NCBI GenBank assembly: GCA_964360995.1
Contig: CAYHYZ010000001.1
Location: forward strand, 31,548-65,821
DNA: 34,274 bases
Origin: an uncultured Candidatus Saccharibacteria bacterium
Lineage (GTDB): Bacteria > Patescibacteriota > Minisyncoccia > Ryanbacterales > HO2-45-13
Reading direction: 5' to 3'
Shown: in pieces, positions 7,508 to 22,903 of the stretch
How positions within the stretch are numbered: the stretch's first letter is position 1
Layout of the letters: each line of letters starts with the position of its first letter
Program-made: the position numbers and the translations under genes
Notes under the pieces: generated by a model
Seen by the model: the letters and a program-made list of their open reading frames with translations, nothing else
Databases searched by the model: none
Told to the model about the DNA's origin: nothing

Positions 7508-9195
7508 TGAAGAGAGTGTTTAATCTCGTGAGTGGGGAGCAAAAAGGAGTACTGGGCGCCGCACTCATGCTGGCGTTTATATCGGTGTTAAATGCTCTGC
7601 TTGCGCTTTATCGTGACCGACTCCTTGCGGGAGCGTACGGGGTATCTGCGGATCTTGATATGTATTTCGCGGCATTTCGCGTTCCTGATTTTCTGTTTGC
7701 CATTGGTCTGCTATTTGTTGCGACCACCGCATTCATACCAGTATTCACTGAACGGAATGCGCGTGGCGTAACAGAGGGGAGAGCACTCATGAACGCTGTG
7801 CTCACCACCTTTCTATTTCTTTTTGGTGGAGTGTTGGCGCTTGCCGCAATCGGTATGCCACTACTCATTAATATTGCAGTACCGGGGTTTACGATAGAGG
7901 CGCAACAATATGTTACGCATCTTGCGCGCATATTACTCATTTCTCCGCTGTTACTGGGAGTTTCAAATCTCATTTCTGGTGTGATACAAGCGTCACGGAG
8001 ATTCTTTATTTTTGCGCTCTCACCAGTCATGTATAATCTCGGGATTATTTCGGGTATTGTATTTTTAGCGCCAACATTTGGGATACAAGGAATCGCGTAC
8101 GGCGCGGTACTTGGGGCACTACTACATTTGCTCGTGCAGGTGCCAACGCTCATTTCATTGGGATATGCTCCGTCTTTGCGATTGCGTGTTGACGCCGATG
8201 TGAAACGTATTCTCACACTTTCTTTTCCGCGCACACTTGCCCTTTCATTTCACCAACTGTCTTTTTTGGTATTAGTGGGAGTTGCGTCTACTGCGGGCGA
8301 GGGAGCAGTGTCGGTGTACAATCTTGCATTCAACTTGCAAGGAGTGCCGCTCTTAATGATTGGTCTTTCATTCAGCGTGGCAACATTTCCATTACTCACA
8401 TCGCTCGCGCAGTCGGGAGCAACGGGTGCATTTCGAGACGCGTATCTTTCTGCGCTTCGACATGTGCTCTTATGGACGGTACCTGCTTCGGTGCTGTTTA
8501 TTACGCTACGCGCACATATCGTACGCGTGATTCTTGGAACCGGATCATTTGCGTGGGCAGATACACAGCTCACCGCCGCGAGTTTGATGATTTTTAGTTT
8601 TGGTGTGGTTGCCTCGAGTGTGATGCTCATGTCCGCACGTGCATTTTACGCAATGGGGCGTACGCGCGAACCTGTACTCTATAACTTCATTGGTTTTCTT
8701 TCGGTGCTTGCGACAATCCTTCTGACGTGGGAGATTACGAGCGCTCTGCCATTCGTAGAGCCGTGGGTGCTCAGCGCGCTTGATCTTGAGGCGTTCTCTG
8801 GTACTCGGATGTACTTACTTCCATTTGCGTTTGTCGTAGGGCAATCGGTGACTGCGGTGTTGTTGCTACTGAGATTTACTCGCGAGTTTGGGCGCCGCGT
8901 GATGTGGGAAAGTCTCAAGGACGCACTCGTGCAAATACTCGCCGCCGGGGCAATACTTGGCGTGGTAGTGCTTGCGCTTCTGAAAGGATTAAATGAATTT
9001 GCAGATCCCCGCACCGCAGGAGGGGTGTTTGTGCAAGGACTACTTGCGGGGATCGGTGGAGCAATCAGTTATTTTGGAGCGCTCTGGGTGTTTCGGAATC
9101 GGGAGGTGCGAGAAATGCTCGATGAGCTGCGGCGTACGCTCTCGAGTTCGCCGACCGTACAACCGGTTGCGGAAGATATGAATCCTCAAACATGA
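7504..9195 (+). CDS. murJ: Lipid II flippase MurJ (MviN)
   Basis: RDRLLAGAYG...DMYFAAFRVPD, AFIPVF, ALSPVMYNLGII and RAFYAMGRTREP motifs; overlaps the upstream stop. Confidence 0.9.
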   Translation: MMKRVFNLVSGEQKGVLGAALMLAFISVLNALLALYRDRLLAGAYGVSADLDMYFAAFRVPDFLFAIGLLFVATTAFIPVFTERNARGVTEGRALMNAVLTTFLFLFGGVLALAAIGMPLLINIAVPGFTIEAQQYVTHLARILLISPLLLGVSNLISGVIQASRRFFIFALSPVMYNLGIISGIVFLAPTFGIQGIAYGAVLGALLHLLVQVPTLISLGYAPSLRLRVDADVKRILTLSFPRTLALSFHQLSFLVLVGVASTAGEGAVSVYNLAFNLQGVPLLMIGLSFSVATFPLLTSLAQSGATGAFRDAYLSALRHVLLWTVPASVLFITLRAHIVRVILGTGSFAWADTQLTAASLMIFSFGVVASSVMLMSARAFYAMGRTREPVLYNFIGFLSVLATILLTWEITSALPFVEPWVLSALDLEAFSGTRMYLLPFAFVVGQSVTAVLLLLRFTREFGRRVMWESLKDALVQILAAGAILGVVVLALLKGLNEFADPRTAGGVFVQGLLAGIGGAISYFGALWVFRNREVREMLDELRRTLSSSPTVQPVAEDMNPQT

Positions 9196-11337: not shown

Positions 11338-11358
11338 GGTGTGTAGTATGATGCAGGC

Positions 11359-11742
11359 ATGCGCGAGAGACAAGAGTATTCACTCGCACTCGCTATATTT
11401 AATTCTCGATTTATTCGCGCGGTGCTCGTGCTTGTATTGCTGACGCTCGGATGGAAAGTAACGGGCAGCGTAGGGGCGTATATGGAGTGGCAGAAAGAGG
11501 AGCGCGAAGCAATGGCTGTACAGGCGCAGTTGCTGAAACGTAAGGAAGACGTGCAAAAAAAACTTGATATGCTCGCGTCCCCCACAGAAAAAGAAATTGT
11601 GGTGAGGCAAGAATTTGTACTCAAAGAGCCTGGGGAGGAAACGGTAGTAATTATTGATGAAGGTATTGAGAGTGCGGCAACGATTACACAAGTATTGCCG
11701 TGGTATAAGCGTATGTGGTTATGGATGCATTTCGGAAAGTGA
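11359..11742 (+). CDS. Septum formation initiator family protein (FtsB/DivIC-like)
   Basis: TM helix, coiled coil, then EIVVRQEFVLKEPGEETVVII, matching the DivIC-type E..AR..L...KPGE motif. Confidence 0.75.
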   Translation: MRERQEYSLALAIFNSRFIRAVLVLVLLTLGWKVTGSVGAYMEWQKEEREAMAVQAQLLKRKEDVQKKLDMLASPTEKEIVVRQEFVLKEPGEETVVIIDEGIESAATITQVLPWYKRMWLWMHFGK

Positions 11743-12432: not shown

Positions 12433-12503
12433 GCGGAATTGGTTTAGTGGTAGGACGCGACCTTCCCAAGGTTGAGGCGCGGGTTCGATTCCCGCATTCC
12501 GCA
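12433..12503 (+). tRNA. tRNA-Gly (CCC), CCA not encoded
   Basis: GCGGAAT/ATTCCGC acceptor stem; anticodon arm CGACC-TTCCCAA-GGTTG; T arm GCGGG-TTCGATT-CCCGC. Confidence 0.96.
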
Positions 12504-12547
12504 CAGCATATAAATACCGTCTGACATCAGGCGGTATTTATATGCTG
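12504..12547. repeat. Long inverted repeat directly after tRNA-Gly
   Basis: CAGCATATAAATACCG (12504-12519) and CGGTATTTATATGCTG (12532-12547) are perfectly complementary; the stem extends to ~20 bp with one G.T pair. Confidence 0.85.
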
Positions 12548-12552
12548 ATATA

Positions 12553-12680
12553 TGGTGAACGGGAATCGAACGGAACTTTTGTGCTGCCGGTGGCAGATGA
12601 AGCAAAAGTCAGTGGCTCCGGATGAGCGCCGACTCGTAGAGGGAAGGCGCGAAGGAGGAGGATTCCCGCATTCCGCACCA
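12553..12680 (+). repeat. tRNA-end unit 1: inverted tRNA T-arm copy, structured core, direct copy of the tRNA 3' end with CCA (att-like)
   Basis: CGGGAATCGAAC (12560-12571) is the reverse complement of tRNA 12483-12494; GATTCCCGCATTCCGCACCA at 12661-12680. Confidence 0.8.
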
Positions 12681-12693
12681 ATGTTGCCCAAAT

Positions 12694-12713
12694 AACACCG
12701 AAAGGTGTTTTTT
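12694..12713 (+). terminator. Intrinsic terminator-like hairpin
   Basis: AACACC-GAAA-GGTGTT followed by a T run. Confidence 0.55.
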
Positions 12714-12792
12714 GGTTCGCAACATTGAGTGCCCCGACAACACGTCGGGGCTTTGTTGAAAGTAAGAGCAAACAAATTGCTTTGTTTGCGTC

Positions 12793-12915
12793 GAGAATCG
12801 AAGGCCGGAGTATCTCGCCGCAGGCGAGCACGAGGAGGGGTCGAGAGTACTTAGCGAAGAAGGAGTGTAGCGACTGATGAGTTTAGTAACTCGTGACCGA
12901 TTCCCACATTTCGCA
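12793..12915 (+). repeat. tRNA-end unit 2 (same layout, different core)
   Basis: GAGAATCGAA (12793-12802) ... CGATTCCCACATTTCGCA (12898-12915, 16/18 match to the tRNA 3' end); internal hairpins such as CTCGCC-GCA-GGCGAG. Confidence 0.65.
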
Positions 12916-12951
12916 AAGAAAAAAATACTTAATATACTATGTATATATATT

Positions 12952-13572
12952 ATGCAGTGTCCGAACGACAACATTAAGATGCACCCAGTGAGGTTGGAAT
13001 CACACTATGGGCTTCGAGTTGATCTTGATCAGTGCGCCTTGTGTGGTGGCATTTGGTTTGATAAGTCAGAATTACATAGAATCAAACAAGGTGAAACAAA
13101 AAAAATTGATTTGCTGGACAGTAGAATATTTAGAGAAATTACTCATATTAAACGTGAAAAACTTTTGTGCCCACGGGATAACTCTAAACTTGTGAAGTTC
13201 GAGGATCGTTATTTTCTCAAGGATATTATTCTAGTGCGTTGCACGGCATGTGATGGGCAATGGCTAAATCGTGGTGAATTTACTAAATATCAAAAGGCTC
13301 GGCAAGAATCACCGAAGCCTAAAGAAAAAAATGCAGAGGATAAAATATTTGACGCTAGAATTGAGCGCATACTTGCGCGGCACAGCACTAGAGGAGCAGC
13401 CGATGTCATGGGAAAAGTTGGAAAATTTTTATCTACACCTATTACCCGTTATCCAATCGGCACACCACTTTCCGCTCTGTACGGAGCGAGCGTATCTGAA
13501 AGGCAGGAGCTGAACTATACCACTAATATCATAGTTGCCATTTTAAGCTCCGTGATTAGAAAAAGACCGTGA
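12952..13572 (+). CDS. Protein with two zf-TFIIB-type zinc ribbons
   Basis: MQCPND...DQCALCGGIWFDKSEL and LLCPRD...RCTACDGQWLNRGEF. Start placed at ATG 12952 because the longer ORF begins inside the repeat. Confidence 0.8.
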   Translation: MQCPNDNIKMHPVRLESHYGLRVDLDQCALCGGIWFDKSELHRIKQGETKKIDLLDSRIFREITHIKREKLLCPRDNSKLVKFEDRYFLKDIILVRCTACDGQWLNRGEFTKYQKARQESPKPKEKNAEDKIFDARIERILARHSTRGAADVMGKVGKFLSTPITRYPIGTPLSALYGASVSERQELNYTTNIIVAILSSVIRKRP

Positions 13573-13601
13573 TACTATCGCCGTCGACGCTTTGATGTGA
13601 C

Positions 13602-13706
13602 CAGATGAAGCAAAAGTCAGTGGCTCCGGATGTACACCGACTCGAAGAGGGAAGGAGGGAAGGAGGGAGGAGGATTCCCCTGCCGGCAGGTAGGCGCATT
13701 CCGCAC
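13602..13706 (+). repeat. tRNA-end unit 3: direct repeat of unit 1 (12594-12678) with a 16-bp insertion in the tRNA fragment
   Basis: CAGATGAAGCAAAAGTCAGTGGCTCCGGATG is identical at 12594-12624 and 13602-13632; the unit ends GATTCC[CCTGCCGGCAGGTAGG]CGCATTCCGCAC. Confidence 0.85.
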
Positions 13707-13759
13707 ACATTAATTGCTCGTTTTCTACGGTACCCACATTCATGGGTTATTTATTCATC

Positions 13760-13768
13760 TGCTATAAT
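13760..13768 (+). promoter_or_regulatory. Extended -10 promoter (TGcTATAAT), probably leaderless transcript
   Basis: TGCTATAAT ends 6 nt before ATG 13775. Confidence 0.6.
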
Positions 13769-13774
13769 GCTTCT

Positions 13775-15538
13775 ATGAACATGGGGTATTTCATTCCCTC
13801 TTTTTCGGTTAAAAAGTACGCGACAAAAGGCGTTGCGCTGCTTATGTCTATCGTTGTGGTCGCTCTGGTCCTTCTCCATCGGGTGGGCCCAGTAAGCGCA
13901 GACGTAGCTACGTTTTTTCCAGAAACGTGTCTGGGGGGATGGCAGAATCCGCAGTACGCCGCGAACACACCTAATGTTGTGGCAGGATTAGCGGAAGAAT
14001 TTACTGAAAATAACTCGGCAACGATCGTTGATACTATTTCGCAATTATTTTGCGGCGAATTTTCCGGCGAAATCCCCGAAAACGCAATTCACAAGAAGGT
14101 AACGTTAAAATTTTCCTGGGCGTTAGCAAGTCCTGAAAGTGAAGCTACTGACACGGCATCGACGACCCCAGCATTTGAGTCGAGCACGTCAACGAATGCC
14201 ACAAATGGATCGCCAGACTATACCGGCGCTCCAGCCGCAGTATCTGTGCCCCTGCTGTCTGAAGCGCTAGCAACGTCCACGGAGACGAGCGTGGAAAATT
14301 CTATCGTTGAGCAAGTGGTGGTCGCAACGTCGACCATTTCCGATGGAGATACCGTTTCCGCGCCGAGTGAGGCTGACCTAGACTCTTCCGAAGTTCCGTC
14401 AACAGCAGATGACATGGCTGAGTCCGCCGAACCGGGGTCCCCAGAGTTCACGTCCACCACCGAGTCAGCACCCGCAGAACCAGCGTCTGCGGAACCTGTG
14501 CCGGACGTATCTTTTTTTCAACAATATATTTTTAGGAGCGCACACGCGCAGGAAACGGAAAGCGGACAGCAAGAGAATATTAATGTGGTTGCTACGCCAA
14601 GTGCCGACACTGCATCATCCACTGCCGCCACCGCGAGCACTTCAGTTTCAGAAATTCCTGCGGGCTCGATTTTGGAAGTACGCTATACCGTTGATGGAGA
14701 GCACTGGGAGTCGCTTGGATACGTCTCACGCCTCGGGCCTGATGTAAGTTTTGAAATACCAGTTTCGGTGGTGAACTCTATTGCCACACTCTCAAATGTC
14801 CAAATTGCACTGCACACGCTTTCGTCGATTGATACGGTCCCGATGATATACGTAGACGCGATGTGGCTTGATATTGAGTACGAGGTCCCGAGAGAAGTGC
14901 CAACATATTCTGATGAGGGTGTCGCGTCGGTATCCTTGAGCGTGCGCCCTGCCGAAGGGGTGATTGAGATTATTGAACCGGAGTATCTGTCGGATGTGAG
15001 CTCGACTACTCCTCCCGCATCTACGACTGAAGGCACGTTCAATGGCAGTAGTGGCGGTGGAGGCACTACAAATAGTAGTGGTATCAGCGGTGGGAATGGA
15101 GGAGGGGAGGCAAATGTGTATGACGAGGATGTGCGCGCAACGTCCTCGACGTTCACATTATTTTCAGATGCTCCCGCATCTCGCGTGTTTAGCGCCGCCC
15201 TCACCGTTGATGCGAATGCGGAGCATTCGTGCGCAATGGCGCGGTACCATATTGATATATCGGCAGTATCGCAAGCAGAAACGCGCGTGATTTTGCGTCC
15301 GGATGGCGCGGGGCCATATACGTTAACAATAGGAAGTTTGCCGGGAGGTATTGATTTGCGATTTATTGAAGGAGATCCGTACCAATATCAACCACGCACT
15401 GAAGAATTTGCCCTAAATATGATGGTGTATAAATCCGAGCACGCACGTATAGGAGATTTTAACGTGCCGATTATCTACACGAAAAAAGGGGCACAAGACT
15501 CATCAGTCATTTGCAAGCTAAATATCATCAATCAATGA
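13775..15538 (+). CDS. Secreted or membrane-anchored acidic Ser/Thr-rich surface protein, first gene of the surface cluster
   Basis: N-terminal hydrophobic segment; beta-rich domains separated by long S/T/A/E low-complexity linkers; ATGA overlap with the next gene. Start chosen from the promoter position. Confidence 0.7.
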   Translation: MNMGYFIPSFSVKKYATKGVALLMSIVVVALVLLHRVGPVSADVATFFPETCLGGWQNPQYAANTPNVVAGLAEEFTENNSATIVDTISQLFCGEFSGEIPENAIHKKVTLKFSWALASPESEATDTASTTPAFESSTSTNATNGSPDYTGAPAAVSVPLLSEALATSTETSVENSIVEQVVVATSTISDGDTVSAPSEADLDSSEVPSTADDMAESAEPGSPEFTSTTESAPAEPASAEPVPDVSFFQQYIFRSAHAQETESGQQENINVVATPSADTASSTAATASTSVSEIPAGSILEVRYTVDGEHWESLGYVSRLGPDVSFEIPVSVVNSIATLSNVQIALHTLSSIDTVPMIYVDAMWLDIEYEVPREVPTYSDEGVASVSLSVRPAEGVIEIIEPEYLSDVSSTTPPASTTEGTFNGSSGGGGTTNSSGISGGNGGGEANVYDEDVRATSSTFTLFSDAPASRVFSAALTVDANAEHSCAMARYHIDISAVSQAETRVILRPDGAGPYTLTIGSLPGGIDLRFIEGDPYQYQPRTEEFALNMMVYKSEHARIGDFNVPIIYTKKGAQDSSVICKLNIINQ

Positions 15539-17421
15539 GTCTGAAGGTTTTTCTAAGGTACCTATTCATGAGTGTATTTGTATTCGTGTGGATATTTTCA
15601 GGATGGCCGCAATTTTTCCGCCTTCCTCCGAGTGTTTCGAATGTCGAAGCGGCGATCTCCGGAGTAACCGCGCGCGGATCAAACACGGTCGGAACCGGAT
15701 CAAATGCATCACTTGCTGTTTCTCCTTCTGGAAACGTGGTCACCGATAAGTTACTTTTTGTGGCAGTGACGGCGGACAATATTGGTACGGCAGATGGGTG
15801 TGGTGGATCAGAACATTCGCTGAAAGATACCGATAATCACGCATGGGTAAAAATATTTGAGTGTATCGAAACTGACGGGTCTGCTGATGACGGAAATACC
15901 ACTTCACTGTTTGTCACAAAAGCGACCACGACCATTAGTACGACCGATGTGATTACCGTCACATTTAGTTCAGCACGTACAGACGCCATCATCAGTTTAG
16001 TGGAGGTAACCTTTGGAGCCGGGAAAACATTCGCTATTGCGCAGACTGGCGTGGGGCAAAACGCGCTTTCTGCAACGATTTCGGTCACGTCACGCGAATA
16101 TTTACTGTTTGGGCTGTTGGGTGCGGAAGGTGAGGACACCGCAAAGACCCCAGACGCGGGAGGCGTGTACGGAGAAAATCACGATCTCATCTCCACAAGT
16201 AGCGGGCTTCCTGCGGTGAATGTACAGCAACACGTACAGACCAATATCGCGACACTCACTGGAGACACGGTAGATACGGCAGACATTACCTATACGAATG
16301 CCCTGCAAACACTCACTGCCGTGTACGAGGTGGACGATCCCACATATGCGCAGTCCAACTATCGGTTTTTCAATAACGCAGACTCTACCGATGTCGGCTC
16401 TGTGCTCGCGGGTGAAGGCGCGTCCGCCACGCTTGCTACGGCAGGGGCTGCGTTTCGCTTGCGACTACTCTTGCATGTGGGGGGGACAGGAAGCATTTTG
16501 TACCAAAGCGGCCAATATTTTAAGCTGCAATTTGCCGCGCGTTCCGGAGATTGTGACACAGGGTTTTCTGGAGAAACATATGCGGACGTTACGGCGGCAA
16601 CGGTGCTTGCATATAACGATAACGCAACACCAACAGATGGATCCAATTTGACGTCTAACGGGAACGATCCTACTCATACGGGGCACAACGTCAACAATCA
16701 GACATATGAAGAAGCAAATGATTTTACTAATTCACGCTTTAATGTTCCCACTGGGGATGATAGTCAGTGGGATTTTTCACTCAAAGATAATGGAGCTCCT
16801 CCGGGCACGACATACTGTTTTCGTGTGGTAAAATCCAATGGTACACAGATTACGACGTACACCGTGATTCCGGAAATTGCTACTGCAGCTTCATCATTGA
16901 CGTTCGTGGTCTCGACCAATGTATTCCAAAATTTTGCTCCCGGTACACCAGTATTTGCAACCACAACATTGAGCGTGGAGACAAACAACGCTGCGGGGTG
17001 GAATGTGACAGTCGTGCGAGATGATGGAGATACTACGCTCGATCTTGACTCGGACGCAACAACGAATATTACTGATCAAACAGCGTGGTCGCCCGGAGCC
17101 GCAACCACATCAGCTGGAAACTCGGTGCGCATTGCTACGTTCGATAACTCGGGGGATATACTTGCATTTCGTGTGATGACCGCGAGCGGATCCGTGCCAT
17201 TTCGCGCATCCACGTGGTGGGGGGCGATTGATGAGTATATTGATAATGCGAGCTCCTTGTGGGCGGGGCTACCAAGTACCGCAAAACAAATAGGGAATAC
17301 AAATGTGACTTCTGGCGGCGCTCCGATGCTTAACACCGTTCTCTATTATCTGGACGTACCAGTCTCACAAAAAGCAGGAGCATATTCAGGAACCATTACG
17401 TATACGGCGACAGCAAATTAA
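15535..17421 (+). CDS. Large secreted multidomain protein with C-terminal WxL-like domain
   Basis: Signal-like N-terminus; C-terminal ~175 aa (ATTTLSVETNNAAGWNVTV...AGAYSGTITYTATAN) paralogous to the next gene and ending in the WxL/pilin-type Y..TITYT strand. Confidence 0.7.
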   Translation: MSLKVFLRYLFMSVFVFVWIFSGWPQFFRLPPSVSNVEAAISGVTARGSNTVGTGSNASLAVSPSGNVVTDKLLFVAVTADNIGTADGCGGSEHSLKDTDNHAWVKIFECIETDGSADDGNTTSLFVTKATTTISTTDVITVTFSSARTDAIISLVEVTFGAGKTFAIAQTGVGQNALSATISVTSREYLLFGLLGAEGEDTAKTPDAGGVYGENHDLISTSSGLPAVNVQQHVQTNIATLTGDTVDTADITYTNALQTLTAVYEVDDPTYAQSNYRFFNNADSTDVGSVLAGEGASATLATAGAAFRLRLLLHVGGTGSILYQSGQYFKLQFAARSGDCDTGFSGETYADVTAATVLAYNDNATPTDGSNLTSNGNDPTHTGHNVNNQTYEEANDFTNSRFNVPTGDDSQWDFSLKDNGAPPGTTYCFRVVKSNGTQITTYTVIPEIATAASSLTFVVSTNVFQNFAPGTPVFATTTLSVETNNAAGWNVTVVRDDGDTTLDLDSDATTNITDQTAWSPGAATTSAGNSVRIATFDNSGDILAFRVMTASGSVPFRASTWWGAIDEYIDNASSLWAGLPSTAKQIGNTNVTSGGAPMLNTVLYYLDVPVSQKAGAYSGTITYTATAN

Positions 17422-17500
17422 CAAGCAATGATATCCACACGTAATCACGATCGTATCAACATAGCGGTGCGTACCATGATACAATAAAAAACAACGAGTT

Positions 17501-18196
17501 ATGAGTTACTTTCGATCATTGGTTTACATACACAATGAAGATCGCGCGCAGTTGTTTGTTGCTATTGCGTTAGTGATGGCACTGCTGTTTGGACTATATG
17601 GAACGTATGCCTATGGAGAGGCGGTGAGTTTGACCGTGACTGTACAAACCGCGCTGTCGTTTACGACATCTTCAGATTATTTTGGGAACTTCACTCCGGG
17701 TACCGCAAAATTTGCGACAACCACGCTTTCGGTGACCACCAACAACGTCGCAGGATGGAATATTATTCTCTCTGGAGATGACCAAAGCCCAACGAATACC
17801 GTCTGCGATCTGAATAGTGATGCATCCGTTGGTCTTACGGATCAATTAGAGTGGATCGCCGGTGCCGCCACCACATCAGCGGGGAATGCGGTACGAATTG
17901 CGACGCTTGATTCGAGCGCGGACGTACTTGCATTTCGTGTGATGACCGCGAGCGGATCCGTGCCATTTCGCGCTGGGACTTGGTGGGGGACCACCGACGA
18001 CTACGCCGACGCCGCAACCACGCTGTGGGCAGGTATTGCGAGTTCGACAGGGTCCCGACAAATTGGAAATGCGGGTACCGGATCATATAGCGCTTCTACA
18101 CACTTAAATACGGTACTCTACTATCTCGACGCACCGTCAACGCAGCAATCCGGAGCCTATACCTGCCCCTTGACCTATACTGCAACTGGCAACTAA
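17501..18196 (+). CDS. Small secreted WxL-like protein (candidate major subunit)
   Basis: Signal peptide ending AYG-EA; ATTTLSVTTNNVAGWNIIL...SGAYTCPLTYTATGN; own TGaTACAAT box at 17477-17485. Confidence 0.7.
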   Translation: MSYFRSLVYIHNEDRAQLFVAIALVMALLFGLYGTYAYGEAVSLTVTVQTALSFTTSSDYFGNFTPGTAKFATTTLSVTTNNVAGWNIILSGDDQSPTNTVCDLNSDASVGLTDQLEWIAGAATTSAGNAVRIATLDSSADVLAFRVMTASGSVPFRAGTWWGTTDDYADAATTLWAGIASSTGSRQIGNAGTGSYSASTHLNTVLYYLDAPSTQQSGAYTCPLTYTATGN

Positions 18197-18249
18197 TATT
18201 GAGCTTGCCGGGGCAGCTTCCTTTCCGATTAGGGGATTCACTCTCTTGA

Positions 18250-19164
18250 ATGAATATTCGCGCAACTGGGCTTATCATCGCTGTGCTTACCACTGTTTTT
18301 TTTGCGCCCACGTTTCAATGGGTACATGCAGACGCGGGGTTGAGTATTCAACCAATTAAAGTATCACAAACATTGAGGCCCGGTGATGAGGTCACTGGAT
18401 TTTTTTCGCTGACAAATGCGGGGAGTGAGCGAGTAGAAGTGACGCTCACGGTTGAAGATTTTGTACCGACGGCCGGAACACCTAATATCAATTTTATCGG
18501 TCGAGCCGAGGGCGTCACCACGGTTCGGGACTGGATTACACTGGGAAACGAATTGGTGTTTCAATTTGATCCGGGGGCATCACGGCAAATTCCGTTTACC
18601 ATTACAGCGCCTCCCACTGCAGAGCCCGGAAGTCACTTTGGCGTGGTATTTTTTAAGGCAACACAGATTGACGCCGCGGGACAGATAAAAGTAGGAACCC
18701 GAGTGGGATCTTTGATATTTATTACTGTTCCGGGGAATCAATTACAAAAAGGGAAGATTATAGACTTTTCTGCGCCAGTATTTTCCCAGCGCGCCCCTGT
18801 GCCATTTAAAATCAAATTTGAAAATACGGGCACCGTGCACTATGAGCCGAAAGGAGAAGTGGTAGTGAAAAATATTTTTGGGCGCGAAGTAGGTGTGGTT
18901 CCAGTTGCGGGGTACGCGGTGCTTCCCACGGGCGTGAGGGATTTGGACGTTGCGTGGGATCCTGAAAAAATAGCCATTGGCCGCTACACTGCGTCCGCAG
19001 CCATTTACGACGGGGAGGGCAACGCACTCACGACGCAAGAACTTTCATTTTATGTTATTCCGGTGTACTTGATACTCGGAATCATTGCGGGTGTATTTGT
19101 TATTTTTCGCATACTGCTATTCATCAAGCGACGCATTCGCATACAAGTGGTGCCGAATAGTTGA
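18250..19164 (+). CDS. DUF916/DUF3324-like WxL-interacting membrane protein
   Basis: Signal peptide; LSIQPIKV..LRPGD...LTNAG, IPFTITAPPTAEPGSHFGVVFF, FENTGTVHYEPKG, VLPTGVR; C-terminal TM helix plus basic tail. Confidence 0.75.
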   Translation: MNIRATGLIIAVLTTVFFAPTFQWVHADAGLSIQPIKVSQTLRPGDEVTGFFSLTNAGSERVEVTLTVEDFVPTAGTPNINFIGRAEGVTTVRDWITLGNELVFQFDPGASRQIPFTITAPPTAEPGSHFGVVFFKATQIDAAGQIKVGTRVGSLIFITVPGNQLQKGKIIDFSAPVFSQRAPVPFKIKFENTGTVHYEPKGEVVVKNIFGREVGVVPVAGYAVLPTGVRDLDVAWDPEKIAIGRYTASAAIYDGEGNALTTQELSFYVIPVYLILGIIAGVFVIFRILLFIKRRIRIQVVPNS

Positions 19165-19167
19165 TGC

Positions 19168-20244
19168 ATGTCGTTGATAGACAAAGTGTCCTGGGCGGCA
19201 ACACTCCCTCGCTTACTCGGTAGTCAGATTTCTCTACCGTATATTGGAATTACCACGGTTTTTTTTATTTTCCCGTTCATATTATGGTCGCTCGCACAGG
19301 TTGTAGGAGTCGTGAATGATGCACGCGCAACGACTATCCAAGTGACGATCATCGGAAGTTACACATGCAATGATACGATAGATAATGACGGAGATTCACT
19401 GGTTGATTATCCTGCAGACACCGGCTGTGAATCTACGACAGATACAGATGAGTATAATGCACCGCCACCAAGTGGTGGTGGTGGTGGGGGGGGTGGTGGT
19501 GGTAGTGGGAGCGGATTTACACTTCCTACCGGTGTTATTTTTCGCGGAAAAGCATATCCCGGAAGTTACGTCGCACTGTTAAAAGATTCGCAGTCCGTTG
19601 CGGTTTCAAAAGCGGGACCAGATGCGAATTTTGAAATTGCGCTTACCGGGCTTTCCGGAGGAGTGTACTCATTTAGTATATGGTCCGCGGATGCAAACAA
19701 TCTCCGATCCACGAACCAAACATTTAGCGTTACAATTACTTCGGGCGTGACCACGGTGATCAGCGGCATATTTATTCCGCCCACCATTGCTGTCGATAAA
19801 TCAGAAGTCAAACATGGCGATGTCATTACGTTTTTTGGTGCTTCTGCGCCAAGCGCAGGGATCACATTGATAGTAAATTCAGAACCCGAAATTATGAAAA
19901 ACACCACCGCAGGGAGCGATGGACTCTGGTCGCACCAGTTCGATACGTTAGCGCTCACTAAAGGCGCACATAGTGGAAAATCACGAGCGAACAAAGATGG
20001 TCTCATCACAGATTTTTCTGCATCGGTTGGGTTTATTGTTGGCGTGGAAAATGTCATCGCCGAACCACCAAAAGACATCACAAAAGGCGAAGTAAATAAT
20101 GATGGTCGCGTGAATATTGTTGATTTTTCAATCGCCGCATATTGGTTTGGTCGCCCCAACCCACCCACAAACGTGGATTTGAATAAAGATGGAAAATTAA
20201 ATTTGGTTGATTTTTCTATTATGGCGTTTTATTGGACTGGATAG
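19168..20244 (+). CDS. Surface protein with Ca-binding CxDxxDNDGD motif, Gly linker, Ig-like domains and C-terminal dockerin-like domain
   Basis: CNDTIDNDGDSLVDYPADTGC; tandem EF-hand-like repeats GEVNNDGRVNIVDFSI and VDLNKDGKLNLVDFSI. Confidence 0.75.
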   Translation: MSLIDKVSWAATLPRLLGSQISLPYIGITTVFFIFPFILWSLAQVVGVVNDARATTIQVTIIGSYTCNDTIDNDGDSLVDYPADTGCESTTDTDEYNAPPPSGGGGGGGGGGSGSGFTLPTGVIFRGKAYPGSYVALLKDSQSVAVSKAGPDANFEIALTGLSGGVYSFSIWSADANNLRSTNQTFSVTITSGVTTVISGIFIPPTIAVDKSEVKHGDVITFFGASAPSAGITLIVNSEPEIMKNTTAGSDGLWSHQFDTLALTKGAHSGKSRANKDGLITDFSASVGFIVGVENVIAEPPKDITKGEVNNDGRVNIVDFSIAAYWFGRPNPPTNVDLNKDGKLNLVDFSIMAFYWTG

Positions 20245-20245
20245 T

Positions 20246-21205
20246 ATGCGGCGCACACATACGGACGGGAGCACTATTTCACACCGAGCGCATCTCATGT
20301 TGCGAATCATTGGAGCGATTGTTTTTTTGCTCGTATTTGGTACAGAAGCGCACGCGGCTACGATTTTTTTTGAACCGCCTACAGCGGATTTTCGTGTGTT
20401 CGATTCGGTGCGCGTGGACGTGTATGTAGAAACGGAAGGAGAAACTATCAATGCAGTCGAGGGAACGCTCATATATCCGAGTGACACATTGCGACTGACG
20501 GGCATCTCCGACGGCGATTCCGTGATTTCATTGTGGGTGGAACGTCCGCGCGAAGTCCGGCCGGGCGAGATACGTTTTTCCGGCATTATTCCCGGAGGGT
20601 TTTCAGGGGTGTTGCAACCGGACAGCCCCATCGTGAAAGGGGGGAAGTTGTTGCGTCTTGAGTTTGTCACTGAATCAACCGGGGACGTGATTATCAACGG
20701 CGTAGATGTTCACGTACTGCTCAATGATGGTAATGGCACGCGCGCGTTTGTGACGATGCTACCATTTGATGGAGCGGTGGTAAGCAACGTGCCGCATGTG
20801 ATCATTCCCCCATCCGACGAAGATGCTCCAGAGCCGTTTCTTGTGAGCCTACACTCCGAACAAGCGGTATATGACGGAAAGTTTTTTATCATTTTTTCGA
20901 CGACTGATAAAGACTCTGGCGTGGATCACTATGAGGTATGTGAAGAAAAAAATATACTCATTTCCAAATGGTGCGTGAATGGGTGGACGACAGCGACGTC
21001 CCCCCACCTGATTGCGGATCAAGCGCTGGAGAGCACGATCAAGGTGAAAGCGATTGACCGCAGTGGTAATGAACAAATCGCCGTACTGCCAGCGGAAGTG
21101 CAAACAATTGATTGGTGGTTGGCAGGAGTAGTGGTCTTTAGTATCTGTGTGTTTGCGCTGATCCTGCTCATCGTTGCTCGCAAGAGATATTTCTCTCGCG
21201 CATGA
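20246..21205 (+). CDS. Membrane-anchored cohesin-domain protein
   Basis: Signal AHA-A; VRVDVYVETEGETINAVEGTLIYP...SVISLWVERP...IRFSGIIPGG...VLLNDGNGT; C-terminal TM helix. Alternative start at 20297. Confidence 0.7.
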   Translation: MRRTHTDGSTISHRAHLMLRIIGAIVFLLVFGTEAHAATIFFEPPTADFRVFDSVRVDVYVETEGETINAVEGTLIYPSDTLRLTGISDGDSVISLWVERPREVRPGEIRFSGIIPGGFSGVLQPDSPIVKGGKLLRLEFVTESTGDVIINGVDVHVLLNDGNGTRAFVTMLPFDGAVVSNVPHVIIPPSDEDAPEPFLVSLHSEQAVYDGKFFIIFSTTDKDSGVDHYEVCEEKNILISKWCVNGWTTATSPHLIADQALESTIKVKAIDRSGNEQIAVLPAEVQTIDWWLAGVVVFSICVFALILLIVARKRYFSRA

Positions 21206-21220
21206 TATAATATACTTCGT

Positions 21221-22741
21221 ATGGACGCCTCGCTCGTTCTTTCACTGTTTCGCGTGCTGCGGACCGGGTTTGTTGCGCTCGTCTTAGCGATACTTGTTTC
21301 CGCTCACTTCGCGGTTGCGGCAGATCTCACTATTTCACCCACCACCGGATCGTATGCTGTTGGTCAACAAATGACTGCGACCATTGTGGTGAACAGCGCC
21401 GATCAGGCCATGAACGCTGCGTCCGGAGTTATTTTGTTTCCAAAAGACACAGTAGAAGTCGTTGCACTCTCTAAAGTGGGCAGTATCATTTCGTTGTGGG
21501 TGCAAGAGCCATTTTTTTCCAATACCGATGGTGTTGTGCGGTTTGAGGGCGTCGTACTCAACCCGGGGTATACGGGCGCAAACGGCAAAATTCTTTCAAT
21601 TACTTTTCGCGCAAAAGCTGCAGGAAATGCTATGCTCTCCATCGATACAAGCTTCGTGCTCGCAAACGATGGCAAGGGTACTAATATTTTAATCAAATCT
21701 GTACCGGCATCCTATACCATCGGTGGAGCATCGTCTCCTGCTCCAACGTCACCGAGTGCCGGCATCCCGGTACCGGAAGTCGTCTCAACGTCTCACCCCG
21801 ATCAGCAATCCTGGTATGCACTACCAGACGTGCGGGTGTCTTGGCAGAATCCTTCGGGGGTGACGGCGGTACGTGTTTGGACCAACCAAGATCCGAACAC
21901 CATCCCAACCAATACGTACGCTCCTCCGATTTCGGAAAAAACACTTACGGATATACCTGACGGAGTACGGTATTTTCATGCGCAGTTTCGCACGTCGGCA
22001 GGGTGGGGACCATCAACTCACTTTCGATATCAAATTGATACGGCAAAACCGACTAACATTACTGCGGAGCAACAAGTGGACGGGCTGGAAGCCGGAACGG
22101 TTCGATTAGCTATTACGGCGCTTGATGATCGCTCTGGTATCCAGAAATATATTGTTGAAGAGAATGGTAAGATACTCACGGAAAAAAGTGCAACGGCGAG
22201 CACTACGATTGATATTCAAGGACTTTCCGCAGGAGCGCATACGCTACGTGTTCGCGCACTCGATGGCGCAGGGAACGCAATAGAAAAAGATATTGAAGTA
22301 ATCGCAACGGCAGCTCCGATTAAGGAAGTTCCGGTTGCTCCTATTCCTACAGAGACTACGCCACCACGTACCGCCTTCAATTACCTGTGGGCACTTTGGA
22401 TAGTTATCGGCGTAATCGTAATACTATTGTTTAGTGTCGGATTATGGTTTTTGCGAGGCAAGCCGCGTACGCGCACGCCGCAACCCCCAAAGAAGGCTGA
22501 TACTTCTGATATGTATTCCGATACGCGCACTATTCGAGAACTACAAGAAGTCATTTCCGCATTTCATCATCGAGTCGACGCGCTCGAAAACAACACAATG
22601 AAGGGAAATGTGTATCAGGATGAACTTGTGCAAATACAAAAAATGAAAACCGACATAGATACCATGCAACTGAGGCTCAAGGGGAGAATCGACGAACTGG
22701 AGCGAAAAATGAGTTTAAAGAAAGAGCCTCCTCGCGTATAG
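21221..22741 (+). CDS. Membrane-anchored cohesin-domain protein with Ig-like domains and cytoplasmic coiled coil
   Basis: ATIVVNSADQAMNAASGVILFP...SIISLWVQEP...VRFEGVV...VLANDGKGT (paralogous to the previous gene); IDTAKP and GAHTLRVRALDGAGN Ig-like motifs; TM helix; coiled-coil tail. Confidence 0.75.
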   Translation: MDASLVLSLFRVLRTGFVALVLAILVSAHFAVAADLTISPTTGSYAVGQQMTATIVVNSADQAMNAASGVILFPKDTVEVVALSKVGSIISLWVQEPFFSNTDGVVRFEGVVLNPGYTGANGKILSITFRAKAAGNAMLSIDTSFVLANDGKGTNILIKSVPASYTIGGASSPAPTSPSAGIPVPEVVSTSHPDQQSWYALPDVRVSWQNPSGVTAVRVWTNQDPNTIPTNTYAPPISEKTLTDIPDGVRYFHAQFRTSAGWGPSTHFRYQIDTAKPTNITAEQQVDGLEAGTVRLAITALDDRSGIQKYIVEENGKILTEKSATASTTIDIQGLSAGAHTLRVRALDGAGNAIEKDIEVIATAAPIKEVPVAPIPTETTPPRTAFNYLWALWIVIGVIVILLFSVGLWFLRGKPRTRTPQPPKKADTSDMYSDTRTIRELQEVISAFHHRVDALENNTMKGNVYQDELVQIQKMKTDIDTMQLRLKGRIDELERKMSLKKEPPRV

Positions 22742-22757
22742 GTATTGGGCACATGCC

Positions 22758-22798
22758 GCACACACATAAGCGCCCCTACGGGGCGCTTATGTGTGTGC
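22758..22798. terminator. Perfect 19-bp inverted repeat between the convergent cohesin gene and tRNA-Thr
   Basis: GCACACACATAAGCGCCCC-TAC-GGGGCGCTTATGTGTGTGC. Confidence 0.6.
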
Positions 22799-22829
22799 CA
22801 GAATTCCAAGCGAACAAATAATTTACATC

Positions 22830-22903
22830 TGGAGCCGAGAGTGGGAATCGAACCCACATTCCTACTTTACGAAAGTAGTGTTCTGCCATTGAACTATATC
22901 GGC
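22830..22903 (-). tRNA. tRNA-Thr (CGT), CCA encoded
   Basis: Reverse complement GCCGATATAGTTCAATGGCAGAACACTACTTTCGTAAAGTAGGAATGTGGGTTCGATTCCCACTCTCGGCTCCA. Confidence 0.95.

Follow-up and report, generated by a model that had tools for sequence, protein, structure and literature searches.

The closest described systems are the integrative elements and genomic islands of tRNA and tmRNA genes, with their gene-less cis-mobilisable derivatives (CIMEs). These insert into the 3′ part of the gene, restore the tRNA with an element-borne copy, carry a direct repeat that begins in the T loop and stack in tandem at a hot spot. The att sites of tRNA-targeting integrases are classically laid out in this way, as a direct repeat that starts in the T loop and finishes at the tRNA 3′ end. 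The locus behind tRNA-Gly(CCC), in the 34,274-nt stretch of DNA analysed here (the window; all coordinates are positions within it, position 1 being its first letter), is alike in each of these respects. We read 12487-12915 together with 13602-13705 as a stack of three insertion elements at this tRNA's 3′ end, each small, structured and protein-less, a reading that we hold somewhat better than even. With a similarly slight preference, we take the youngest element to be the one that adjoins the tRNA, and we lean towards assigning the stacked elements to two core types, U1 and U2, of one family. The parts of the array are collected in Table 1.

Table 1. Features of the array behind tRNA-Gly(CCC), in window coordinates.
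Feature	Position	Strand	Description and basis
tRNA-Gly(CCC)	12433-12504	+	No encoded CCA; ARAGORN; Rfam RF00005, 67 bits
Proximal copy a	12487-12505	+	First (left) copy of the 18-nt direct repeat: tRNA nt 57-73, then C
Palindrome H	12504-12547	+	21-nt arms, 95% complementarity; left part of unit 1
Unit 1 antisense arm a′	12553-12571	+	TGGTG, AA, then CGGGAATCGAAC; inverted repeat 12/12
Unit 1 core, type U1	12572-12660	+	Hairpin 12575-12610; purine-rich irregular hairpin 12617-12659; fold
Unit 1 distal copy a_d	12661-12680	+	GATTCCCGCATTCCGCA plus CCA; 17/17 identity to tRNA
Two terminator-like hairpins with T runs	12694-12709, 12731-12751 (within 12694-12757)	+	Terminator scan; conserved in G001
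Unit 2 P0 hairpin	12768-12789	+	Inverted repeat, 9-nt arms; homologous hairpins in relatives
Unit 2 antisense arm a′	12792-12802	+	CGAGAATCGAA; 10/11 complementary to tRNA; family-alignment columns 5-10
Unit 2 core, type U2	12803-12897	+	J(GAAGG), P2 hairpin, GG, long irregular P3 hairpin ending GTGACC
Unit 2 distal copy a_d	12898-12915	+	CGATTCCCACATTTCGCA; 2 mismatches in 17; no CCA; third direct-repeat copy (12899-12915)
Unit 1b, 5′-truncated U1-type copy	13602-13705	+	BLAST 87% over 78 nt; sequence

tRNA-Gly(CCC) is the target and anchor of the unit array, and its 3′ part recurs as an 18-nt direct repeat (12487-12505 and 12661-12678). Based on this repeat and on the comparison with a genome of the same genus (G001) given below, the proximal copy can be read as a replacement 3′ end that probably arrived with unit 1. 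The same comparison marks the unit 1 a_d as the putative ancestral tRNA-Gly 3′ end with its encoded CCA, and the unit 2 a_d is an older displaced tRNA 3′ end. At the start of unit 1, TGGTG (12553-12557) is complementary to the CACCA at 12676-12680, and CGGGAATCGAAC (12560-12571) is the complement of tRNA nt 53-64, matching 12483-12494 of the gene at 12 of 12 positions; the arm skips the 7-nt acceptor strand of the tRNA. These inverted T-arm copies and direct 3′-end copies, first seen in a first-pass annotation of the locus, are all where it had placed them and far above chance. We counted three occurrences of the 17-mer direct copy in the window (0.01 expected) and four of the inverted 11-mer with at most one mismatch, the tRNA itself on the other strand and the tRNA-Thr T arm included (0.66 expected); none of 100 shuffles reached 3 and 4, respectively. 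Also present are the long palindromes that it described before the two units, H and P0. Palindrome H has a G+C-rich centre and A/T-rich flanking arms and looks like a two-way terminator hairpin; the T-run terminator scan did not call it, and hairpins resembling it also follow the tRNA in other family copies. P0 is a conserved U2-type module, with a covarying stem and a loop near ACUGCU in relatives. The hairpins of 12694-12757, the first of which is enclosed by an inverted repeat (12679-12687 / 12719-12727), can be taken either for the terminators that the ancestral tRNA gene had or for the left part of unit 2.

Farther downstream, unit 1b, which is absent from the first-pass annotation, is composed of a core fragment (13602-13671), GGATTCCC (13672-13679), a 17-nt hairpin insert (13680-13696) and CATTCCGCA (13697-13705); the terminator scan placed a terminator-like hairpin downstream of it at 13732-13747. 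The window neighbours of the units are LepA, a SurA-like protein and a Zn-ribbon protein, and the units themselves are without an ORF. ARAGORN and Rfam found only three true tRNAs in the window and recognized the units as neither tRNA, tmRNA nor tRNA-like. The proposal that each unit folds on itself held for unit 1, whose plus strand reaches a minimum free energy (MFE) of -49.7 kcal/mol with paired termini (z = -2.33; 4 of 200 shuffles equal it). Unit 2 alone is unexceptional (-37.3 kcal/mol, z = -0.60), with termini unpaired in the MFE fold; the support for its predicted closing stem comes entirely from the family alignment, in which the junction covaries.

We think the units are better regarded as insertions from a family of many copies and patchy distribution than as a feature special to tRNA-Gly(CCC). 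Covariance model R1 matches unit 2 at 12788-12910 with 79.2 bits (E = 3.4e-22), and this unit has what defines the family: a place next to a tRNA on the same strand, an antisense arm with a sense copy, and helices P1-P2-P3. Unit 1 shares the placement, the arms and the three-helix topology, and its core is a separate, rare type. The 755-kb genome that carries the locus (G000), that of an ultra-small Patescibacteria bacterium, holds nine R1 matches at E <= 1, which are unit-2-type, as well as three U1-type copies and one fragment; the other U1 cores are 87-91% (window 13602-13679) and 89% (contig C21) identical. BLAST with the U1-type core against 401 genomes of the class returned G000 and none of the 400 others, and a pattern scan of metagenomes for this type gave only three chance matches in high-GC coding DNA. 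In a phylum sample the family was found in 7 of 151 genomes, six of which hold 5-8 copies each. An exact 16-mer scan of species genomes yielded at least 120 loci, and most of the 80 matches listed belong to Patescibacteria lineages; on balance, we are inclined to regard the family as Patescibacteria-specific.

The pattern matched 121 times; 95 of the matches are apparently genuine units, and a same-strand tRNA lies upstream, within short flanks, in 69 of these 95. The family sits just behind tRNA genes, of at least 17 identities. Units measure 110-240 nt, with a conserved core of about 70-130 nt and no ORF; a single tRNA can be followed by several copies in tandem, the older of which are decayed, and truncated and internally deleted copies occur. 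Carriage by phages was considered and rejected, since only 1 of 24 candidate viral-contig loci held real units and these lay on the host side of a prophage-host junction. Rfam 15 returned only tRNAs and chance-level matches for the window (E <= 10) and four pristine loci (E <= 1). A full-text literature search, judged by title and abstract, gave no description of such tRNA-tail elements. No catalogued RNA or mobile element matches the family.

The arms of the family are cut to the neighbouring tRNA. The arm a′ and the direct copy change with the tRNA they adjoin, as seen at Gly(GCC), at an intron-bearing tRNA on contig C26, at Leu(CAA) in G022 and in 30 further cases, and contiguous antisense runs reach 17-21 nt. 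The first-pass annotation had staked its reading on an inverted copy that is conserved in homologues and tracks the adjacent tRNA, and this is how the arm behaves: it is kept in place and changes with its neighbour. In the pristine copies of G069, G096, G118 and G164, some 21 nt of the tRNA, running from nt 56/57 to the CCA, are repeated exactly. Identity ends at the CCA or a few bases beyond; the spacer starts directly after the CCA of the tRNA and is homologous between units at different tRNAs. Cores at different tRNAs in G118 are 79-93% identical with wholly different arms, and the same is true of G118 versus G164, which belong to different families (91% core identity). In G000, U1 stands behind both tRNA-Gly and tRNA-Pro with 89% core identity. 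We know of no mechanism that explains the re-fitting of a′ to a new tRNA.

Resident copies decay neutrally, both arms about equally. Over 66 rows, a set in which some loci occur more than once and a few upstream tRNAs are misassigned, so that its counts are approximate, a_d departs from the tRNA at 54 positions, where a′ fits the tRNA in 39, a_d in 11 and neither in 4; a′ alone departs at 57 positions, with G.U as the outcome at 12 and A.C at 11. The idea that a′ is better kept than a_d was rejected, as its T part was better at 14 loci, worse at 10 and tied at 12, and its acceptor part better at 14, worse at 14 and tied at 8. The CCA of unit 1 was also dismissed as a sign of mature-tRNA (RNA) origin: in G001 the ancestral gene ends in this same CCA-bearing piece, and tRNA genes without CCA usually have an a_d without CCA as well.

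Covariation supports a conserved three-way-junction fold. In alignment A1, columns 18/72 are AU in 18 sequences, CG in 12, GC in 11 and UA in 2, with none of the 43 broken. Alignment A2, made of 36 model matches that were not chosen by the 16-mer and fitted to the model, which favours structure, has 92.0% of its cells paired versus 70.4% in shuffles and 30-47% in slid controls, with both-sided changes in 22 of 24 pairs. The self-folding described in the first-pass annotation corresponds to this junction with its compensatory changes. A G.U pair at the base of P3 is found in 30 of 34 scorable sequences. P3 as a whole contains 39 G.U versus 5 A.C, an excess that identifies the tRNA-sense strand as the folding strand. 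Besides the invariant pair, the two are near parity (P1, 8 versus 14; P2, 7 versus 6), which is of no help in choosing between RNA and DNA.

One insertion polymorphism is available. At the equivalent locus, G001 has TC plus GATTCCCGCATTCCGCACCA, the same terminators and unit 2, without unit 1, and BLAST found no U1-type core in that genome. Because the ancestral tRNA end, the distal copy with CCA followed by a terminator, is seen in G001, unit 1 appears as a lineage-specific insertion, in a comparison of one genus pair with the direction set by two bases (T55, C56). The surroundings vary too: G001 has 0.8 kb of inserted DNA in which another tRNA-Gly and an ORF lie, 9.9 kb of G000 are missing from G001 and G002, and elsewhere one prophage-host junction adjoins a unit array. 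Contig joints over the locus (12810 to 12872 with 22 other letters; 12475 to 12661) fit a G001-like strain and not an empty site. The second of them fits a G001-type rearrangement, and no transposition, circle or excision product was seen among the joints.

No protein is associated with the units. A recurrent neighbouring ORF was not found in 30 loci of about 3 kb. Neither the Y1 (HUH) transposase PF01797 nor the IS110 DEDD recombinase PF01548 was detected in the five element-bearing genomes, each search being positive in 6 of 14 reference genomes. Reverse transcriptase (PF00078) was found in three of the five and in neither G000 (96% complete) nor G069 (99% complete), a distribution that does not fit a retroelement with a tRNA primer-binding site. 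G000 encodes a single tyrosine recombinase (PF00589), on another contig and not beside the units. Integron attC sites carry the boxes RYYYAAC/GTTRRRY; such R″/R′ boxes were not seen by eye in the conserved A1 columns.

Then, what kind of entity would place such units behind so many tRNAs? We mildly favour non-autonomous insertion elements aimed at the tRNA T loop and 3′ end. The 5′ end of such an element would be a copy of the tRNA from nt 57 to the 3′ end, which would keep the tRNA gene whole. A spacer with a terminator-type hairpin would follow, with or without the P0 hairpin, and then a′, an arm that is the antisense counterpart of the T loop and T stem and sometimes of the acceptor strand too; the conserved three-way-junction core would come next, with the displaced original tRNA 3′ end (a_d) after the element. 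Since the two tRNA-end copies are identical, the insertion point can with equal right be placed in the T loop, between nt 56 and 57, or just past the last base of the tRNA. We infer that mobility caused the spread of the family, that the active form is single-stranded and that the arms are re-tailored on a template. On the tRNA-sense strand, a′ would pair with a_d and close the junction; this folded single strand would be the form that is recognized and moved, and each new target tRNA would serve to make both arms afresh. As to the strand, we think first of DNA that replication or DNA uptake would expose and, as less likely, of read-through RNA; movement might rely on enzymes supplied in trans or on general host recombination or replication functions. 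After insertion, no function would be maintained and the copies would decay.

A host-serving non-coding RNA is a different matter. The unit would be transcribed with or after the tRNA and act via a tRNA-like end, a T-arm/acceptor closing helix whose 3′ tail stops at the discriminator or CCA, serving as a minihelix mimic or decoy for tRNA-3′-end enzymes or toxins, or as an antisense regulator of pre-tRNA maturation. The tRNA-sense fold, the strong covariation and the invariant G.U agree with an RNA, the last of these, together with the purine-rich internal loops, being more typical of functional RNAs than of DNA sites. A true terminator stands after a_d in many copies, and pristine copies end in the exact 21-nt tRNA tail with CCA followed by such a terminator. 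Several units also have the acceptor-strand complement 5′ of P0, giving an acceptor-like helix, and the orthologous units of G000 and G001 (contigs C26, C31) keep the P2 hairpin despite different sequence. However, resident arms drift from the tRNA about equally (57 versus 54 positions) with few compensated changes, and a standing regulatory pairing with the tRNA, such as the co-transcribed RNA suggested in the first-pass annotation might form, is not supported. Many copies are truncated or deleted, 144 of the 151 sampled phylum genomes show none, and in tandem stacks at one tRNA the older copies have decayed. Terminator hairpins usually stand between the tRNA and the unit, and no promoter-like site precedes the units in the window. 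Such a host role seems unlikely to us.

Rather unlikely, too, is a mobile element made of nucleic acid only, in which pairing finds the target, copying of the target re-programs the arms, and the junction itself, as RNA or single-stranded DNA, directs or catalyses insertion at T-loop 56|57 of any tRNA. The arms would be rebuilt by templated synthesis, for example by template switching that perfects an imperfect inverted repeat seeded on the near-universal T loop. If true, insertion would here be programmed by a guide and need no protein dedicated to it.

A catalytic RNA is a distinctly doubtful explanation. The junction would be a small ribozyme and a′ its internal guide, like P1/P10 of group I or EBS of group II introns, cutting and joining at T-loop 56|57, either by self-splicing from a read-through pre-tRNA or by reverse-splicing into the tRNA. 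The guide of the main subfamily is the complement of nt 57 onwards followed by the complement of nt 54-56 and so reaches across the junction that the target has when uninterrupted. L048 (T loop TCC) is the only informative case, and its triplet is the expected GGA; the two candidate sites, UUC|G57 and ACC|G57, are equivalently placed relative to a′, and the junction nucleotides are highly conserved. Against this, one subfamily leaves nt 57-59 unpaired, and with a single informative case the guide spanning the insertion point was set aside. Splicing is unnecessary because the proximal tRNA is intact, G000 and G069 lack a reverse transcriptase, and the distal copies behind CCA-less tRNA genes point away from an RNA as well. 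Neither Rfam ribozyme models, those of small self-cleaving ribozymes included, nor intron models match the window (E <= 10) or the pristine units (E <= 1). The group I model RF00028, which does not match the units, finds a true group I intron in the tRNA upstream of the contig C26 unit, so the group I test works in the same genome. A hammerhead, hinted at by CUGAUGAG...GUGAC in unit 2, was rejected, as the motif is missing from most members and CUGAUGAG, present only in some copies, is not conserved in the family. An RNase P-like RNA, hinted at by AAAGTCCGTGGCTCC in the contig C21 copy, was rejected as well, that motif not being common to other units; the RNase P RNA of the genome stands elsewhere (96 bits).

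Least probable, and largely contradicted, is that the units are ordinary integrase-island remnants, their direct repeats being attL/attR scars of deleted integrative elements or prophages and the arm and hairpins incidental: the T-loop-to-3′-end repeat, the hot-spot character of the locus (the 0.8-kb and 9.9-kb segments) and the prophage-host junction beside a unit array agree with it, but such scars, which as the first-pass annotation noted need only a direct repeat, account neither for an antisense arm that co-varies with the tRNA nor for a conserved core with compensatory changes, found across many lineages behind no fewer than 17 tRNA identities in ORF-less units of 110-240 nt, with the single tyrosine recombinase of G000 not beside them and the one real viral-contig locus of 24 host-side.

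If the units are mobile, as the preferred reading has it, they would be a kind of element not yet described, gene-less and structure-defined, aimed at the most conserved part of tRNA genes, with the ends of each copy cut to fit its own tRNA. The re-fitting of the arms could reveal a new target-templated recombination, whether a catalytic nucleic acid or the replication and repair of the host carries it out. The elements would also account for a recurrent source of duplicated tRNA tails and small insertions in Patescibacteria, with their tiny genomes. Cataloguing the family, which is absent from Rfam 15, would stop pipelines from calling its tRNA-like ends pseudo-tRNAs or att sites, and the many pristine copies are ready substrates for bench tests.

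Among known systems, integron attC and the attP(+) hairpin of CTX-type IMEX phages resemble the units in having a strand-specific imperfect inverted repeat that mimics a double-stranded site and in forming arrays, and recognition would follow structure more than sequence. Whereas those have a fixed core site and an IntI or phage context, the stem of a unit copies the target tRNA and its "loop" is a conserved junction with two more helices; the single-stranded DNA form, one of the two options of the first-pass annotation, is here a proposal. The internal guides of self-splicing introns, the IGS (P1/P10) of group I and EBS/IBS of group II, likewise are segments complementary to both sides of the insertion point and target a conserved RNA gene. 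The core of a unit, however, is far smaller, without an Rfam match or an intron-encoded protein, and the unit starts with a duplicate of the "3′ exon" in a tRNA that needs no splicing. IS200/IS605 elements (a guide beside subterminal hairpins; REP/RAYT) and the IS110 bridge RNA are alike in that they fold strand-specifically, recognize the target by pairing through a short guide in small hairpin-bearing ends or a non-coding RNA, and have non-autonomous hairpin repeats behind genes; in contrast, the guide of the units is 6-21 nt long and matched by a sense copy of the target, and the corresponding transposases were seen in none of the five genomes. BOX, ERIC, Correia/NEMIS and other MITEs are also about 100-200 nt long, gene-less, multi-copy, foldable and often decaying. 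Their terminal repeats are element-specific and their target duplications short and fixed, whereas the arms of the units copy the adjacent tRNA and the units are placed exclusively behind tRNA genes. Compared with the tRNA-targeting integrative elements and CIMEs, finally, the units are without an integrase in or near them, in a genome with only one tyrosine recombinase, and are 110-240 nt long; they have a three-way-junction core and an internal arm antisense to the target, and one core family serves at least 17 tRNA identities.

All the features that the first-pass annotation had described for units 1 and 2, including the T-arm complements, the tail copies and both palindromes, are present downstream of tRNA-Gly(CCC), and a third element, unit 1b, is stacked behind them. 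The source genome comprises 755 kb in 57 contigs at about 96% completeness, a size typical of Patescibacteria (CPR). The direct 17-mer occurs three times in the window as compared with 0.01 expected and the inverted 11-mer four times as compared with 0.66, counts so far over expectation that chance is no explanation. Folding gave mixed support to the layout: the termini of unit 1 are predicted to pair (-49.7 kcal/mol, z = -2.33), and unit 2 folded alone is unremarkable (z = -0.60). Genes for LepA, a SurA-like protein and a zinc-ribbon protein neighbour the units in the window.

Coordinates of features in the tRNA-linked arrays (window positions unless a contig or locus is named; G000, own genome; G001, same genus; C, contig; L, individual locus)
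Feature	Location	Strand	Remark
tRNA-Gly(CCC)	12433-12504	+	without encoded CCA
Palindrome	12504-12547		21-nt arms
TGGTG	12553-12557		complement of CACCA 12676-12680
CGGGAATCGAAC	12560-12571		12/12 complementary to T arm 12483-12494
Exact repeat of last 17 nt of tRNA	12661-12677		followed by CCA
True terminators	12694-12709 and 12731-12751		
Palindrome	12768-12789		9-nt arms
CGAGAATCGAA	12792-12802		complementary to T arm at 10/11
Second repeat of last 17 nt of tRNA	12899-12915		two mismatches
Unit 1b, copy of U1-type core	13602-13671		BLAST match 13602-13679
Tail hairpin inserts	13680-13696; G000:C11 ~11345-11375; G001:C7 and C9 (L013, L005)		
Interrupted tRNA-Gly(CCC) locus of G001	L135, G001:C9 ~2750-3570	minus	
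Intron-interrupted tRNA	L140 1742-2022 (G000:C26)	minus	RF00028
Unit behind tRNA-Arg(TCG)	L154, G000:C21:6307-6407	minus	
tRNA-Ser-tail-specific unit array	L185 2740-3340		viral-contig collection

BLAST of the unit region against the own genome and 40 relatives recovered unit 1b, further copies on contigs C26, C11, C5, C6 and C21 of the own genome, copies in G001 and one in G022, a genome of another family. Read in context, all of them lie directly 3' of a tRNA gene, and in every copy read both tRNA-derived pieces fit the local tRNA and not tRNA-Gly(CCC). The C26 copy has the arms TAGGATTCGAA ... CGAATCCTACCCGCGGAGCA, and the G022 copy, behind tRNA-Leu(CAA), has GGTGGGAGTTGAA ... CAACTCCCACCTCGGGCA. 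That the inverted arm tracks the adjacent tRNA, which had been put forward as the decisive test, held in these and the other copies read. The longest contiguous antisense runs are 17-21 nt. The acceptor-strand complement of some copies sits 5' of P0, the hairpin 5' of the core, apart from the T-arm complement. Behind tRNA-Arg and tRNA-Trp there is a subclass whose antisense arm spans the last tRNA bases and 4-6 nt of trailer; this arm is simply the outer portion of a long palindrome enclosing the terminator hairpin.

Several individual copies deserve description. The unit behind tRNA-Arg(TCG) has GAGTC in both arms where the tRNA has GAATC, and the acceptor part of its tail is Arg-specific; its arms may be a hybrid, the remnant of a target change. 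Some distal tRNA-tail copies contain a 17-33-nt hairpin at the exact boundary of T-stem strand and acceptor strand, and orthologous inserts of this kind in the own genome (C11) and G001 (C7) show compensatory differences (CTCA/TGAG vs CTCGC/GCGAG). A group I intron (RF00028, 86.7 bits) splits the tRNA gene upstream of the C26 unit. A second intron-bearing tRNA on C5 (~7900-8090) is suggested solely by similar sequence, and ARAGORN called neither of these interrupted genes.

Unit 2 is a good member of the common core type, matching the covariance model R1 at 12788-12910 with 79.2 bits. Unit 1 follows the same plan of antisense arm, two hairpin domains and sense tail. Its U1 core sequence is confined to three copies in the own genome, at 12572-12660, in unit 1b and behind tRNA-Pro(CGG) on C21; none was found among 400 other genomes of the class, and all three matches in the metagenome scan were due to chance. 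Since the plan is the same and the core of unit 1 is different, the logic of tRNA-tailored arms is independent of any single core sequence.

The age of the units could be judged by comparison with G001, in which an insert of about 0.8 kb, containing a second, different tRNA-Gly(CCC) with encoded CCA and an ORF of about 200 aa, interrupts the orthologous tRNA-Gly(CCC) behind nt 44. On the 3' side of the insert, TC + GATTCCCGCATTCCGCACCA precedes the two terminators known from the window, with unit 2 behind them. This layout identifies the ancestral end of the tRNA gene: it is the distal copy at 12661-12680 together with its CCA and the true terminators. In front of G57 stand T55-C56 in G001 and the end of the unit-1 core in the own genome; the ancestor therefore lacked unit 1, which was gained (174 bp) in the lineage of the own genome. 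The ancestral end also accounts for the match of TGGTG of unit 1 to a CCA absent from the present gene. By the same logic, the decayed arms of unit 2 (10/11 and 15/17) make it an older insertion, and the truncation and 17-nt tail hairpin insert of unit 1b make it older than unit 2. The unit nearest to the tRNA is the youngest. The hexamer GTGACC at 13594-13599, usually the last six bases of a U2-type core, adjoins the truncated start of unit 1b, which suggests a nested older insertion. Because of an 18-nt repeat, the insertion has two equivalent descriptions that the data do not distinguish: a proximal tRNA-end copy, hairpin, antisense arm and core entering the T loop at 56|57, or hairpin, antisense arm, core and tRNA-end copy entering after the last tRNA base. 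About 9.9 kb (12916-22830) lie between the array and tRNA-Thr(CGT); in G001 the unit-2 tail and tRNA-Thr are about 60 nt apart. This DNA has no match at E <= 1e-6 in G001 or in G002, of the same family, its ORFs at 13742-19164 have no Pfam match, and it looks like a strain-specific island at a tRNA hot spot.

Minimal units with cores of about 70 nt were found in four genomes of other families of the phylum (G069, G096, G118 and G164). In these pristine copies the distal sense copy reproduces the tRNA without a mismatch over about 21 nt, starting at nt 56/57 and running through the encoded CCA, and its identity to the tRNA ends at the CCA or a few A-rich bases beyond. The antisense arm, of 6-10 nt, spans the T loop and the T stem in part. 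Many of the spacers, which are about 48 nt long, have a terminator hairpin, and the real terminator stands 3' of the distal copy. Spacers at different tRNAs and in different genomes are homologous from the first base after the CCA of the tRNA (L150 vs L157), so the spacer is part of the element; tandem repeats of proximal copy, terminator, antisense arm and core are also present (L161). Cores behind different tRNAs within G118 are 79-93% identical, and those of G118 (Arg) and G164 (Gln), from different families, are 91% identical with wholly different arms. Such identity indicates that transfer of the core between tRNA types and lineages outpaces its divergence, the arms being replaced at each move.

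A species-genome collection was scanned with an exact 16-mer taken from the 3' strand of the unit-2 core, yielding at least 120 loci. By record title, the 80 matches listed belong mostly to Patescibacteria lineages (Saccharibacteria, Paceibacterota/Parcubacteria, Nomura-, Yonath-, Kaiser-, Zambryskii- and Lloydbacteria, Peribacteria), and about 10 of the matches listed are chance occurrences inside genes of unrelated bacteria. Upstream core motifs are found in 95 of 121 pattern matches, 69 of which have a same-strand tRNA in the 300-400-nt flanks examined. The tRNAs are those for Ala, Arg, Asn, Cys, Gln, Glu, Gly, His, Ile, Leu, Lys, Phe, Pro, Ser, Thr, Trp and Tyr, to which a wider genome search added Met and Val. 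R1 detects 9 copies in the own genome and has matches in 7 of 151 genomes sampled over the phylum, six of them with 5-8 copies each.

The consensus of 43 aligned units is a three-way junction. Helix P1 pairs the antisense arm with the distal sense copy. P2, joined to P1 by GAAAG, has an outer stem G-N-C/G-N'-C, an internal loop and an inner stem; GG leads to P3, in which a long irregular stem continues from the base GGUCG/UGACC. In outer P2 the middle pair is AU in 18 units, CG in 12, GC in 11 and UA in 2, and is broken in 0 of 43. This alignment is no test of P3 because the search pattern was the P3 3' strand. In a pattern-free alignment of 36 R1 matches from genomes sampled without the 16-mer, itself fitted to the R1 model, 92.0% of cells are paired vs 70.4% in shuffles (0/500 reach 92.0%), both-side changes occur in 22 of 24 pairs, and sliding the partners by 1-3 columns leaves 30-47% paired. 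The base of P3 has a G.U pair in 30 of 34 scorable sequences, making this pair nearly invariant, and with P3 totals of 39 G.U vs 5 A.C the folding strand is the tRNA-sense strand. Besides the invariant pair, G.U and A.C are near parity (P1 8/14, P2 7/6), a pattern that resembles drift in dead copies and does not discriminate between RNA and DNA. Even permissive thresholds gave no Rfam 15 match to the units. Many units have GAGCGAAGCGAA or a close variant at the P3 tip (e.g. L066, L106, L109). It contains GCGAAGC, which in DNA is known to form an unusually stable mini-hairpin and which may bear on the RNA-or-DNA question.

The first-pass interpretation is upheld in part, in its fold and its tracking of the tRNA; a regulatory antisense role is unsupported. 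In 66 tRNA/unit rows, among them some duplicated loci and a few with a mis-paired tRNA, the distal copy differs from the tRNA at 54 positions within nt 57-64; at these the antisense arm fits the tRNA in 39, the distal copy in 11 (mostly artefacts) and neither in 4. The antisense arm alone differs at 57 positions (12 G.U, 11 A.C, 34 other). Both arms thus drift about equally with little compensation, and their paired comparison shows zero asymmetry. Such drift and the presence of truncated and internally deleted copies are characteristic of dead insertions and would not be expected of host-kept RNAs.

Phage carriage of the units is negligible, with real units in 1 of 24 viral-contig candidate loci, and that array follows a displaced tRNA-Ser tail and is located on the host side of the junction with a prophage. 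Standing after a bare tRNA-Ser 3' fragment, it lies where phage-like genes (lysozyme, tail chaperone, a piece of NrdD) meet host-like genes, and it resembles the attR end of a prophage that integrated into tRNA-Ser. No recurrent ORF family was found near the units in 30 loci of about 3 kb. Among five element-bearing genomes, Y1 transposase and IS110 recombinase are each found in none, reverse transcriptase in three (absent from G000 and G069) and tyrosine recombinase in all five, the own genome having a single one on another contig.

What was inserted at the 3' end of the tRNA gene, and gained within a genus, is a gene-less folded element that leaves the tRNA intact and carries an antisense arm matched to its target. 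Its family is multi-copy and patchy, changes tRNA type with replacement of its arms and decays after insertion. The active form would be a folded tRNA-sense single strand, possibly DNA from the lagging-strand template or taken up from outside. We lean to DNA over RNA because terminators stand between tRNA and core, no promoter-like site was found before the units in the window and the own genome lacks reverse transcriptase; given the invariant G.U pair and the purine-rich loops, it may instead be RNA. Template switching during replication is established in bacteria as a process that perfects imperfect inverted repeats. One route of re-fitting the arms without a dedicated enzyme could be seeding on the near-universal T loop, after which such switching would perfect the repeat. 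This proposed route would fit arms that are always anchored at the T-loop end beside the core and extend outward by 6-21 nt.

Most probably the units are small non-autonomous insertion elements of a new kind that target the tails of tRNA genes, and the literature reached by our full-text searches held no description of the family. Integrative elements that target tRNAs are alike in site, tRNA restoration, repeat and stacking, but are defined by an integrase, a test that this element fails. With attC and CTX-type hairpin sites it has a strand-specific fold in common, whereas its stem is a copy of the target. Target pairing is shared with intron guide sequences, IS200/IS605 and IS110, but the catalytic RNA of introns and the proteins of IS200/IS605 and IS110 have no counterpart in the element.
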